Part shown: positions 1,181-6,294 of the stretch, piece after piece
Layout of the letters: each line of letters begins with the position of its first letter
Position numbering within the stretch: the stretch's first letter is position 1
Assembly (NCBI RefSeq): GCF_056746865.1
Contig: NZ_CM163382.1
Length of the DNA: 64,000 nucleotides
Strand: one strand, 5' to 3'
The notes under the pieces: model-generated
The model's database searches: none
Told to the model about the DNA's origin: nothing
The model's input: the letters and a program-made list of their open reading frames with translations, nothing else
Translations under genes and position numbers: made by a program

Positions 1181-1981
1181 ATGTACCAGGTTGTTGCGTC
1201 TGATTTAGATGGCACGTTACTTTCTCCCGACCATACGTTATCCCCTTACGCCAAAGAAACTCTGAAGCTGCTCACCGCGCGCGGCATCAACTTTGTGTTT
1301 GCGACCGGTCGTCACCACGTTGATGTGGGGCAAATTCGCGATAATTTGGAGATTAAGTCTTACATGATTACCTCCAATGGCGCGCGCGTTCACGATCTGG
1401 ATGGCAATCTGATTTTTGCTCATAACCTGGATCGCGACATTGCCAGCGATCTGTTTGGCGTAGTCAACGACAATCCGGACATCATTACTAACGTTTATCG
1501 CGACGACGAATGGTTTATGAATCGCCATCGCCCGGAAGAGATGCGCTTTTTTAAAGAAGCGGTGTTCAAATATGCGCTGTATGAGCCTGGATTACTGGAG
1601 CCGGAAGGCGTCAGCAAAGTGTTCTTCACCTGCGATTCCCATGAACAACTGCTGCCGCTGGAGCAGGCGATTAACGCTCGCTGGGGCGATCGCGTCAACG
1701 TCAGTTTCTCTACCTTAACCTGTCTGGAAGTGATGGCGGGCGGCGTGTCGAAAGGCCATGCGTTGGAAGCAGTGGCGAAGAAACTGGGCTACAGCCTGAA
1801 GGATTGTATTGCGTTTGGTGACGGGATGAACGACGCCGAAATGCTGTCGATGGCGGGGAAAGGCTGCATTATGGGCAGTGCGCACCAACGGCTGAAAGAT
1901 CTGCATCCGGAGCTGGAAGTGATTGGTACTAACGCCGAGGACGCAGTGCCGCATTATCTGCGTAAGCTCTATTTATCGTAA
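1181..1981 (+). CDS. yigL: HAD-family sugar-phosphate phosphatase YigL
   Basis: ORF track 1055-1981 begins inside pldB; real start is the ATG at 1181 (MYQVVASDLDGTLL, HAD motif I DxDGT), 7 nt after the pldB stop; 266 aa. Confidence 0.9.
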   Translation: MYQVVASDLDGTLLSPDHTLSPYAKETLKLLTARGINFVFATGRHHVDVGQIRDNLEIKSYMITSNGARVHDLDGNLIFAHNLDRDIASDLFGVVNDNPDIITNVYRDDEWFMNRHRPEEMRFFKEAVFKYALYEPGLLEPEGVSKVFFTCDSHEQLLPLEQAINARWGDRVNVSFSTLTCLEVMAGGVSKGHALEAVAKKLGYSLKDCIAFGDGMNDAEMLSMAGKGCIMGSAHQRLKDLHPELEVIGTNAEDAVPHYLRKLYLS

Positions 1982-2056
1982 TCGTTCTTTATTTGGTCAG
2001 TTGTCAACCTGATACTTCGCTACAATGGATACTCGTTAATCAAAGAGTTTTCCATT

Positions 2057-2956
2057 GTGGCGCTACTTATCATCACCACGATTCTGTGGGCCTTCTCCTT
2101 TAGCTTTTATGGCGAGTACCTTGCGGGGCACGTCGATAGCTATTTTGCGGTGCTGGTGCGCGTTGGCCTGGCGGCACTCGTTTTTCTGCCGTTTCTGCGT
2201 ACCCGTGGCAATAGCCTGAAAACGGTCGGCCTGTATATGCTGGTGGGCGCGATGCAGCTCGGCGTGATGTATATGCTGAGTTTTCGCGCCTATCTCTACC
2301 TGACGGTCTCCGAGCTGCTGCTGTTCACCGTACTGACGCCGCTCTACATCACGTTGATTTATGACATCATGAGTCAGCGCCGTCTGCGCTGGGGCTATGC
2401 TTTTAGCGCCTTGTTGGCGGTGATTGGTGCCGGGATTATTCGCTATGATCAGGTCACCGACCACTTCTGGACTGGCCTGCTGCTGGTGCAGCTCTCCAAT
2501 ATCACTTTTGCCATCGGCATGGTGGGTTACAAACGTCTGATGGAAACTCGCCCGATGCCGCAGCATAACGCCTTTGCGTGGTTCTATCTTGGCGCGTTCC
2601 TGGTGGCGGTGATTGCATGGTTCTTGCTGGGAAATGCGCAGAAAATGCCACAAACCACGCTGCAATGGGGCATTCTGGTGTTTCTTGGCGTGGTGGCTTC
2701 CGGGATTGGCTACTTTATGTGGAACTACGGCGCAACCCAAGTAGACGCCGGAACGCTGGGCATTATGAATAATATGCACGTTCCGGCAGGGCTGCTGGTA
2801 AACCTGGCTATCTGGCACCAACAGCCGCACTGGCCAACGTTTATTACAGGCGCGCTGGTGATCCTGGCCTCACTGTGGGTGCATCGTAAGTGGGTCGCTC
2901 CGCGCTCTTCACAAACGGCAGATGATCGCAGGCGTGATTGCGCGCTGAGCGAATAA
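2057..2956 (+). CDS. yigM: Inner-membrane EamA/DMT-family transporter (biotin uptake, BioP)
   Basis: 299-aa hydrophobic ORF with GTG start; matches E. coli YigM. Confidence 0.85.
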
Positions 2957-3797
2957 ACGCTTCTGTAATCGGCTGACGCTGCTCGCCATCACGCACGGCG
3001 GCGTACAGTCGGCTCCACAAGCCTTCGCCCAGGGTTTTGGTCACCACCAGACCCTGGCGTTCAAAACTCTCCACCACCCAATGCGGTAGTGCGGCAATAC
3101 CCATCCGTGCGGCAACCATCTGAATCAACAATAAGGTGTTATCGACGCTTTTCAGTGACGGGCTGATGCCTGCTGGCTGAAGAAAATGCCGCCAGACATC
3201 CAGTCGACTACGCTGCACCGGATAAATCAACAGCGTCTCGCTGGCGAGATCTTCCGGTGTAATACGCGTTTTCGCCGCCAGTGGATGGTCAGGTGCCAAT
3301 ACCAGACGCACTTCATAATCGAACATCGGCGAATAATGCAGGCCACTGCGCGGCAGAATATCGGACGTCATTACCAGATCCAGCTCTCCCTGTTGCAAGG
3401 CGGGCTGCGGGTCAAATGTCACGCCCGATTTAAAGTCCATCTCGACCTGCGGCCAGTTCTTATGGAAATTTTCTAACGCGGGCGTCAGCCACTGAATACA
3501 GCTATGGCACTCAATGGCGATGCGCAGACGCGTCTGCTGCGGTTCATTGCAGGCTTGCAGTGCCTGGCTAATTTGTGGCAGCACCTGGTTTGCCAGTTGC
3601 AACAGGATTTCTCCCTGCGGTGTAAAGCGAAGCGGCTGGCTCTTACGCACAAATAGCCGGAAGCCAAGGCGTTGTTCCAGATCGCTAAACTGGTGAGATA
3701 GGGCGGATTGCGTCTGATGCAACGTCGCCGCAGCGGCTGCGAGAGAGCCGCAGTTCCGCAACGCTTGTAGCGTTTTCAGGTGTTTTACTTCGATCAT
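2844..3797 (-). CDS. metR: LysR-type transcriptional activator MetR
   Basis: 317-aa ORF with N-terminal HTH ([23 protein letters not shown]) and LysR substrate domain; divergent from metE. Confidence 0.95.
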
Positions 3798-4032
3798 GAA
3801 AGTCCTTCACTTCGGCATGAATAATTTGCGCTTGAGGAATATACAGTAACCGCCAATTATGGATGTGTAAACATCTGGACGGCTAAAATCCTTCGTCTTT
3901 TAAATTTATGGTGCGTTGGCTGCGTTTCTTCACCCCGGTCACTTACTTCAGTAAGCTCCCGGGGATGAATAAACTTGCCGCCTTCCCTAAATTCAAAATC
4001 CATAGGATTTACATATAATTAGAGGAAGAGAA
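3798..4032. promoter_or_regulatory. metR/metE divergent promoter region (expected to hold MetR and MetJ operator sites)
   Basis: 235-bp intergenic region between divergent metR and metE; individual met-boxes not confidently resolved by eye. Confidence 0.5.
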
Positions 4033-6294
4033 ATGACAATATTGAATCACACCCTCGGTTTCCCTCGCGTTGGCCTGCGTCGCGAGCTGAAAAAAGCGCA
4101 AGAGAGTTATTGGGCGGGGAACTCCACGCGTGAAGAACTGCTGGCAGTAGGGCGTGAACTGCGTGCCCGTCACTGGGATCAACAAAAGCAGGCGGGTATC
4201 GACCTGCTGCCGGTGGGCGATTTTGCCTGGTACGATCATGTACTGACCACCAGTCTGCTGCTGGGTAATGTTCCGCCACGTCATCAGAACAAAGATGGTT
4301 CGGTAGATATCGACACCCTGTTCCGTATTGGTCGTGGACGTGCGCCGACTGGCGAACCTGCGGCGGCAGCGGAAATGACCAAATGGTTTAACACCAACTA
4401 TCACTACATGGTGCCGGAGTTCGTTAAAGGCCAGCAGTTCAAACTGACCTGGACGCAGCTGCTGGAGGAAGTGGACGAGGCGCAGGCGCTGGGCCACAAG
4501 GTGAAACCTGTGCTGCTGGGGCCGGTTACCTACCTATGGCTTGGGAAAGTGAAAGGTGAACAGTTTGACCGCCTGAGCCTGCTAAACGACATTCTGCCGG
4601 TTTATCAGCAAGTACTGGCAGAACTGGCAAAACGCGGCATTGAGTGGGTACAGATCGACGAACCCGCACTGGTACTGGAACTACCGCAGGCGTGGCTGGA
4701 CGCATACAAACCCGCTTACGACGCGCTTCAGGGCCAGGTGAAACTGCTGCTGACTACCTATTTTGAAGGCGTAACGCCAAATCTCGACACGATTACTGCG
4801 CTGCCTGTTCAGGGGCTGCATGTGGACCTTGTACATGGTAAAGATGACGTTGCTGAACTGCACAAGCGTCTGCCTTCAGACTGGCTACTGTCTGCGGGTC
4901 TTATCAATGGTCGTAACGTCTGGCGCGCCGATCTTACCGAGAAATATGCGCAAATTAAGGACATTGTCGGCAAACGTGATTTGTGGGTGGCATCTTCCTG
5001 CTCGTTGCTGCACAGCCCCATCGACCTGAGCGTGGAAACGCGTCTTGATGCAGAAGTGAAAAGCTGGTTTGCCTTCGCCCTACAAAAATGCCATGAACTG
5101 TCACTGCTGCGCGATGCGCTGAACAGTGGTGATACGGCAGCTCTGGCAGAGTGGAGCGCCCCGATTCAGGCGCGTCGTCACTCAACCCGCGTACATAATC
5201 CGGCAGTAGAAAAGCGTCTGGCGGCGATCACCGCTCAGGACAGTCAGCGTGCGAATGTCTATGAAGTGCGTGCTGAAGCCCAGCGTGCGCGTTTTAAACT
5301 CCCAGCATGGCCGACCACCACGATTGGTTCTTTCCCGCAAACTACGGAAATTCGTACCCTGCGTCTGGATTTCAAAAAGGGTAATCTCGACGCTAACAAC
5401 TACCGCACGGGCATTGCGGAACATATCAAGCAGGCCATTGTTGAGCAGGAACGTTTGGGACTGGATGTGCTGGTACATGGCGAGGCTGAGCGTAATGACA
5501 TGGTGGAATACTTTGGCGAGCACCTCGACGGTTTTGTCTTTACGCAAAACGGTTGGGTACAGAGCTACGGTTCCCGCTGCGTGAAGCCACCGATTGTTAT
5601 TGGTGACGTTAGCCGCCCGGCACCGATTACCGTGGAGTGGGCAAAATATGCGCAATCCCTGACTGATAAACCGGTGAAAGGGATGTTGACCGGCCCAGTG
5701 ACCATTCTCTGCTGGTCGTTCCCGCGTGAAGATGTCAGCCGTGAAACCATCGCCAAACAAATTGCGCTGGCGCTGCGTGATGAAGTCGCGGACCTGGAAG
5801 CCGCTGGAATTGGCATCATTCAGATTGATGAACCGGCGCTGCGCGAAGGTTTACCGCTGCGTCGTAGCGACTGGGATGCATATCTCCAGTGGGGCGTCGA
5901 GGCTTTCCGTATCAACGCCGCCGTGGCGAAAGATGACACACAAATCCACACTCACATGTGTTACTGCGAGTTCAACGACATCATGGATTCGATTGCGGCG
6001 CTGGACGCAGACGTCATCACCATCGAAACCTCGCGTTCCGACATGGAGTTGCTGGAGTCGTTTGAAGAGTTTGATTATCCAAATGAAATCGGTCCTGGCG
6101 TCTATGACATTCACTCGCCAAACGTACCGAGCGTAGAATGGATTGAAGCCTTGCTGAAGAAAGCGGCAAAACGCATTCCGGCAGAGCGCCTGTGGGTCAA
6201 CCCGGACTGTGGCCTGAAAACGCGCGGCTGGCCAGAAACCCGCGCGGCACTGGCGAACATGGTGCAGGCGGCGCAGAATTTGCGTCGGGGGTAA
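4033..6294 (+). CDS. metE: Cobalamin-independent methionine synthase
   Basis: 753-aa ORF starting [29 protein letters not shown]; matches E. coli MetE. Confidence 0.97.

Follow-up and report, generated by a model that had tools for sequence, protein, structure and literature searches.

The yigM-metR locus

The window analysed here is a stretch of 64,000 nucleotides of contig NZ_CM163382.1 (NCBI RefSeq assembly GCF_056746865.1). Two of its open reading frames, yigM (bioP) and metR, lie on opposite strands with common 3' ends and form, by their ORF coordinates, a convergent overlapping pair (Table 1). A tail-to-tail overlap of 113 bp had been proposed from the letters of the window, and it was confirmed both by the ORF listing and by the RefSeq boundaries in two strains. 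The DNA of the window is from E. coli. In E. coli strain 118UI, which is 100% identical here, RefSeq/PGAP places bioP at 1558-2457 and metR at 2345-3298 of L001, leaving the boundaries unchanged. In K-12 MG1655 the genes are annotated at 4011076..4011975 (bioP) and 4011863..4012816 (metR), with the overlap at 4011863-4011975, again 113 bp. The yigM-metR region was found in 5425 of 5426 complete E. coli genomes. In K-12 the locus corresponds to b3827/b3828, and yigM was said to overlap metR substantially in a study by Côté et al. (2016, mBio, PMC5120140); the overlap as such is already annotated and published. The codon positions of the yigM and metR frames are paired 1-1, 2-3 and 3-2, which is the "phase 1" convergent arrangement, the commonest among overlaps of more than 4 nt according to one preprint.

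Table 1. Features of the yigM-metR overlap and its surroundings (positions in the window)
Feature	Position	Strand	Description
yigM/bioP CDS	2057-2956	+	ORF, 299 aa, GTG start
metR CDS	2844-3797	-	ORF, 317 aa, LysR-type regulator
yigM/metR convergent overlap	2844-2956 (113 bp)		YigM codons 263-299 and stop; MetR codons 281-317 and stop
metR stop (2844-2846) with in-frame back-up stop (2841-2843)	2841-2846	-	antisense of YigM F262-I263
Left segment	2844-2890		yigM-like evolution (end of TM10, ...ASLWVHRK); other strand carries the metR stop and MetR 303-317
Junction	2891-2908 (about 18 nt)		YigM W279-S284 opposite MetR S298-P302; constrained in both frames
Right segment	2909-2956		metR-like evolution; + strand carries YigM 285-299 and the yigM stop
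yigM stop TAA	2954-2956	+	antisense of MetR F281-I282 (TTT ATT)
Hairpin HP1	2969-3012	+ (yigM-sense RNA)	13 nt past the yigM stop, within metR codons ~262-277
C-rich, G-poor stretch	3000-3117	+ (yigM-sense RNA)	directly past HP1; putative rut-like tract

Both yigM and metR are real, conserved genes, as judged from their family models, the published genetics of biotin transport by yigM and a solved MetR structure (PDB 5fo5). YigM/BioP is a biotin transporter of the EamA/DMT type with ten helices; Ringlstetter and Finkenwirth et al. had already identified it as the transporter. Its Pfam EamA match extends up to residue 275 and its TIGR00950 match covers residues 11-273. Distant homologues of 280-296 aa could be aligned only to about residue 275-285. 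The AF2 model of YigM has a mean pLDDT of 87.7, which falls to 59 at residues 281-290 and to 46 at residues 291-299. In MetR, the Pfam domains HTH_1 and LysR_substrate reach residue 288, and the NCBIfam equivalog model NF011950 covers residues 1-317 of 317 with 741 bits against a cut-off of 382. The alignment of MetR with PDB 5fo5 and 4ab5 extends only to residue 296; 5fo5 is the solved MetR DNA-binding domain, and the structure of the regulatory domain of Neisseria MetR aligns up to the same residue. The AlphaFold model of MetR, built from a shallow alignment of 21 sequences, had a mean pLDDT of 42 and is uninformative on the tail.

Conservation of the overlap

The locus was compared in 80 species-representative genomes of Enterobacteriaceae, 79 of them evaluable, having MetR relatives of at least 90% identity; families beyond this sample were reached protein by protein. 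Of these 79 species, 73 share an overlap of exactly 113 bp; the other six have 116 bp (two species), 98 bp, 68 bp or a frameshifted yigM (two species). The overlap was also 113 bp in Yersinia frederiksenii, so that the comparison of ortholog C-termini, proposed as a check of both stops, places them at the same position in the 73 species and in Yersinia. In Pectobacterium and in a Dickeya-like contig the overlap was 95 bp and 98 bp, respectively, and the yigM stop was retained in both.

On parsimony, the overlap is most simply regarded as ancestral to Enterobacteriaceae, Yersiniaceae and Pectobacteriaceae and as lost at least twice, because an identical junction is common to Yersinia and Escherichia. 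The more distant yigM homologues (42-51% identity) do not adjoin metR and so provide no outgroup for this polarity.

At least two independent separations of the genes were found, one in the Serratia clade and one in Erwinia, with both genes retained each time. In Serratia marcescens a gap of 36 bp separates a YigM of 286 aa from a MetR of 314 aa, and the gap is 3 bp in Chania and 327 bp in Gibbsiella. In Erwinia toletana, yigM (287 aa) and metR (312 aa) are kept apart by a DUF1456 gene. Compared with Yersinia, Serratia has about 100 additional nt, located precisely at the junction that is constrained in both frames. These additional nt encode the new short C-terminus of YigM and the new tail of MetR and contain a hairpin spacer. 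Intergenic hairpins are present in the separated loci of both Serratia and Erwinia.

Natural YigM variants of 284-287 aa were found in one species of Enterobacteriaceae and in Salmonella lineages (284-285 aa in these two) as well as in the Serratia clade and Erwinia. MetR ranges from 311 to 318 aa across species. MetR that is not overlapped still keeps a tail of about 10-15 residues rich in Pro, Gly and Ala. The tail sequences of both proteins vary freely from genus to genus.

Constraint in the two reading frames

Nucleotide diversity per site was determined by codon position in 70 species and compared with control windows of the same size outside the overlap, where third positions had a diversity of 0.41 in yigM and 0.37 in metR. 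The overlap turned out to consist of three parts. In the left segment the third positions of yigM were as free as elsewhere (0.39), whereas those of metR had a diversity of 0.12, lower than in every metR control window. The second codon positions of MetR were as variable here as the synonymous sites of yigM, and MetR residues 303-317, with a mean conservation of 0.66 versus 0.96 for residues 1-302, are altered whenever yigM changes synonymously. In the right segment the relation is reversed. The third positions of metR had a diversity of 0.27 and its second positions, which are the third positions of yigM, one of 0.005-0.006; the second positions of YigM follow the metR wobble, and YigM residues 285-299 are passengers. 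The metR wobble diversity in this segment is somewhat low (0.27 versus 0.37, the 7th percentile of the control windows). Between the two lies the junction, where no codon position reaches a diversity of 0.1 (0.09 at yigM third and 0.08 at metR third positions) and both wobble classes are below 99.6-100% of the control windows. By the 70-species diversity, dual constraint was found only in these approximately 18 of the 113 nt and not across the whole overlap. Judged from these patterns, both tails of about 15 residues probably have little or no sequence-specific function, although the extreme C-terminus of YigM is perhaps not fully neutral.

This last point comes from the somewhat low metR wobble diversity of the right segment and from the codons at the yigM stop. 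The codons of MetR F281 and I282 face YigM E299 and its TAA stop, and both of their wobble sites are invariant in the 70 species. Among the 18 fully conserved Phe and Ile sites of MetR, only these two use a single codon in 70 of 70 species. In Serratia, which has no overlap, the I282 codon is ATC. On the other side, YigM codon 263 is restricted to ATT, ATC, CTT or CTC, which gives TAA or TGA as the stop of metR. The back-up stop of metR was found in 58 of 70 species, and two species terminate metR there, producing a MetR of 318 aa and an overlap of 116 bp. The overlap is apparently frozen at 113 bp because purifying selection holds the Phe-Ile codons of the partner gene. With the stops pinned in this way, selection for the overlap itself is unnecessary. 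Nor is the length of the overlap beyond chance once the conserved cores abut: in the long ORFs of the window this antisense phase has stops at about 5% of its codons, and the chance of 15 stop-free codons is about 0.46 for one tail and about 0.21 for both.

The 3' end of the bioP mRNA

The bioP mRNA must end inside metR, because no intergenic space is left for a terminator. A consensus scan of both strands of 2844-3100 for intrinsic terminators and promoters gave none close to either stop. An Rfam scan of 1900-4200 left the overlap empty, its sole match being a sub-threshold V_AS5 in the metR-metE spacer. The 3' ends of yigM and metR have no entry in the Term-seq tables of Adams et al. or in the TRS and SMRT-Cappable-seq supplements. 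The data of Adams et al. (2021, eLife, PMC7815308) do contain a region of Rho termination on the + strand, with its peak at 4011704 (window position 2685), a Rho score of 5.07 and p = 1.3e-12, although this call was made in 800-nt windows and is coarse, and its peak lies inside yigM and not after HP1. Reads across the region dropped from 98 to 21 without bicyclomycin and went from 300 to 326 with bicyclomycin (Adams et al. 2021, PMC7815308).

In E. coli, Rho-dependent 3' ends are made up of a stable stem-loop that has no U tract and a rut site directly downstream (Dar & Sorek 2018, PMC6061677). The sequence past the yigM stop matches this anatomy. The hairpin HP1 has a minimum free energy of -28.8 kcal/mol, with a z of -2.58 on the + strand versus -0.08 on the - strand in dinucleotide shuffles. 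It lacks a U tract and is followed by CCACAAGCC. The stretch 3000-3117 contains 38-40% C and 21-22% G (C/G 1.76-1.94). Across 50 species the HP1 helix was 94.5% paired, a count that is inflated because the species are related and one of their sequences served to derive the structure. Many single changes in the helix fit G-U pairs on the yigM-sense strand. A second hairpin at 3026-3059, terminator-like in E. coli, was also considered and was dropped, as Yersinia lacks it and its outer stem shows no conservation.

The folding of HP1 was assessed further by recoding, in which the MetR protein of each species was kept fixed, the codons were resampled and the fold was compared with that of the real sequence. 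With the overlap present, the recoding z was -1.9 in E. coli, -3.3 in Pectobacterium, -2.5 in the Dickeya-like contig and -3.1 and -3.4 in two runs for Yersinia, and its mean over 70 Enterobacteriaceae was -2.0. In the species without the overlap it was -0.6 in Serratia (-0.7 in the first run), -0.8 in Chania, +0.9 in Gibbsiella and +1.6 in Erwinia, a contrast that is thin, as it comes down to two independent losses (the Serratia clade and Erwinia). These four species share the MetR peptide at HP1 yet show no folding signal. When windows along the whole of metR were compared in 12 species, none had a lower mean z than that of HP1 (-2.23); the other windows averaged -0.19 ± 0.50, with a minimum of -1.52. 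No conserved structure was found in the 3' region of metR inside yigM, where the window adjacent to the stop had a mean z of -0.83, within the spread.

These results make HP1 a candidate for the 3' end of the bioP mRNA, or for a structure protecting it. The 3' end would then be made by Rho and protected by HP1, with both elements written in the synonymous sites of metR. It is possible, though we would not go so far as to call it probable, that about 160 nt of metR serve in three ways: they would encode MetR, specify on the antisense strand the last 16 residues of BioP, and carry in their synonymous sites a 3'-end module for bioP consisting of the hairpin at 2969-3012 and the rut-like tract. 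Selection on RNA structure would in this case shape the codons of the opposite strand and be relaxed when the genes separate.

Discussion

The observations are probably best explained by a genuine and old overlap that arose from abutting protein cores, with stops pinned by the partner gene, drifting tails and a likely Rho-dependent 3' end of the bioP mRNA. The YigM core would end at about W279-S284 and that of MetR at about R301-P302, the two cores sharing only about 18 nt of DNA. Beyond its core each frame would stay open for some 15 codons, reading the opposite strand of the partner's conserved end, up to a stop provided by TTY-ATY (Phe-Ile) in the partner, since its reverse is TAA or TGA. 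The tails would be translated with little or no sequence-specific role, and the bioP mRNA would finish inside metR, most likely in a Rho-dependent manner at HP1 followed by the rut-like stretch.

The fixed length and great age of the arrangement could be explained alternatively by a coupling of metR and bioP through their convergent or antisense transcripts, by interference, polymerase collision or cleavage of double-stranded RNA, tying the supply of methionine and SAM to the uptake of biotin. The original prediction had pointed to antisense transcription across each other's 3' coding region and to possible interference. The former holds: because the overlap is real, any mRNA for either full-length protein is necessarily antisense to the 3' coding region of the partner, and full-length mRNAs are complementary over at least 113 nt. 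Regulatory interference at bioP-metR is a possibility in whose favour we found nothing. A physiological link is conceivable, as SAM is consumed by biotin synthesis. The fixed length, however, is fully accounted for by the Phe-Ile codons of the partner, and the Serratia clade and Erwinia have split the genes and retained both. Read-through from yigM into metR in the yigM sense is curbed by Rho, and the metR 3' region inside yigM is devoid of conserved structure. The supplements of the p19/RNase III dsRNA capture list no dsRNA cluster for yigM/metR, and their tables name neither gene, which is weak evidence as expression may be low. A precedent for such coupling is the antisense cross-talk of the E. 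coli pair mscL-arfA (PMC10070815). This pair is likewise convergent, with transcripts overlapping at their 3' ends, and a regulatory antisense effect is reported for it there, whereas the comparative data for bioP-metR require none. On balance, we regard a coupling of the two genes as unlikely.

Very unlikely, in our opinion, is a function for both tails, with all 113 bp being truly dual coding and under selection in both frames. The conserved lengths of both ORFs would fit such a role, as would the invariance of YigM E299 and TAA at the expense of two MetR wobble sites and the persistence of the Pro/Gly/Ala-rich MetR tail where the overlap is gone. Against it, second positions in each tail (MetR in 2844-2890, YigM in 2909-2956) simply track the synonymous or wobble rate of the opposite gene, the tail sequences differ freely between genera, several lineages have fixed a YigM of 284-287 aa and a MetR of 311-314 aa, and model confidence in the YigM tail is low. 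The other explanation offered in the original prediction, that one C-terminus was mis-called, or more generally that a sequencing or annotation error only simulates an overlap, can hardly be right. It could appeal to the Pfam models, which end before the tails (at residue 275 in YigM and 288 in MetR). The stops, however, are read straight from the sequence, and no earlier in-frame stop exists in either the yigM or the metR frame; the RefSeq boundaries in K-12 and 118UI are identical, 73 of the 79 species agree, and the NCBIfam model covers MetR to its last residue. The mis-call is thus refuted.

The overlap that is explained here by abutting cores and pinned stops has close relatives among known systems. 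Convergent overlaps usually comprise a few nucleotides, and that of bioP-metR is much longer. With prokaryotic "phase 1" convergent overlaps that arise by extension of 3' ends it has in common the opposite strands, the meeting of 3' ends, the 1-1/2-3/3-2 pairing, weakly constrained tails and purifying selection on the partner frame. Unlike the usual pairs of this kind, it is conserved over several families of Enterobacterales, and a tail is contributed by both genes. With the Rho-dependent ends described by Dar & Sorek (PMC6061677) the bioP end shares a hairpin without a U tract, a C-rich and G-poor stretch next to it and termination sensitive to bicyclomycin (Adams et al. 2021). It differs from them in that the whole putative module would lie inside a convergent coding sequence, at synonymous sites. 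The K-12 pair of Côté et al. (2016, PMC5120140) does not differ from the present one, either in locus or in its 113 bp. What is added here to that study is the switch between frames, the stops held by Phe-Ile codons, the loci of the Serratia clade and Erwinia in which the overlap is resolved, and the hairpin.

Nothing at bioP-metR should surprise a specialist. The origin of the overlap is ordinary. The locus may serve as a textbook case of a long and deeply conserved overlap which can be explained without selection for overlapping. Of what is added here, only the hairpin and rut module merits a small experiment. If the idea is true, bioP would illustrate neatly, on a modest scale, how the 3'-end signal of an mRNA can be placed in the synonymous sites of a convergent gene. 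A practical consequence concerns mutants, since standard deletion of either gene harms the other, and knock-out phenotypes of metR and yigM need to be re-checked. A Keio-style ΔmetR loses YigM 270-299 and mimics a biotin-transport mutant. In the work of Côté et al. (2016, PMC5120140) ΔmetR did mimic ΔyigM in its synthetic lethality with bioA, its sensitivity to a BioA inhibitor in rich medium and its biotin uptake. According to the primer table of that study, the metR deletion keeps the last six metR codons and so loses the DNA for YigM 270-299, whereas the primer for the yigM deletion ends at window position 2822 and spares metR.

Conservation of the yigM end and of the hairpin that follows it

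The hairpin lying beyond the yigM stop, within metR, was found to be kept up at metR synonymous sites in all the species in which yigM and metR overlap. No such upkeep of the 2969-3012 hairpin at metR synonymous sites was found in Serratia, Chania, Gibbsiella and Erwinia, four species free of the overlap. Positions 2950-2957 (CGAATAAA) showed no variation among the 70 Enterobacteriaceae species compared, and only F281 (TTT) and I282 (ATT) were codon-invariant among the 18 conserved Phe/Ile sites of MetR, these two codons standing opposite YigM E299 and the TAA stop. This hints at selection on the extreme end of YigM or on the context of its stop.

Coordinates of features in the window and in yigM-metR loci of other genomes
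Feature	Coordinates	Strand	Remarks
Hairpin	2969-3012	+	Strand-specific; 13 nt 3' of yigM stop, within metR codons ~262-277
C-rich tract	3000-3117	+	Comes after hairpin 2969-3012
255-aa ORF	2063-2830	-	Antisense to nearly whole yigM, in codon-aligned antisense frame
G+C-rich hairpin, Serratia	L086 3362-3397		Directly 3' of yigM stop; -19.7 kcal/mol
G+C-rich hairpin, Erwinia	L087 3365-3409		Directly 3' of yigM stop; -25.4 kcal/mol, z -3.3

A published Rho-termination peak on the + strand maps to K-12 position 4011704 (window 2685), inside yigM and about 270 nt before its stop (Adams et al. 2021, PMC7815308). The peak was derived with 800-nt windows, and its offset from the stop may be a mere imprecision of these windows, or else the peak could reflect some premature termination within bioP (yigM).

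Other features of the region

The 255-aa ORF looks like a shadow ORF, without evidence for a gene. A weak match to the Rfam family V_AS5, a Vibrio antisense RNA, was obtained in the metR-metE intergenic region (3889-4007, - strand; 28.7 bits, E 0.002), falling under the gathering score of 96, and is probably a chance match.

Loci with separated or apparently damaged genes

Judged by their position, the Serratia and Erwinia hairpins are located where an intergenic terminator would sit. A palindromic REP-like unit (…CTCTCCCTGTGGGAGAGGG…GGGTGAGGGCCGCAACC…), repeated several times, fills the 327-bp yigM-metR spacer of Gibbsiella (L092 2862-3188).

The yigM gene appeared to be frameshifted in Enterobacter cloacae DSM 26481 (L018) and E. 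asburiae INSAq146 (L029), and carried internal stops in Kluyvera genomosp. 3 (L043), metR being intact in all three; these cases may be pseudogenes or assembly errors. In E. coli Z135-6 (hit H12, NZ_CP159632.1) the query was matched in two pieces with only 41% coverage, as in few E. coli genomes. The annotation at this place, given as 'hypothetical protein | LysR family transcriptional regulator | bioP', suggests a disruption of metR in this strain.
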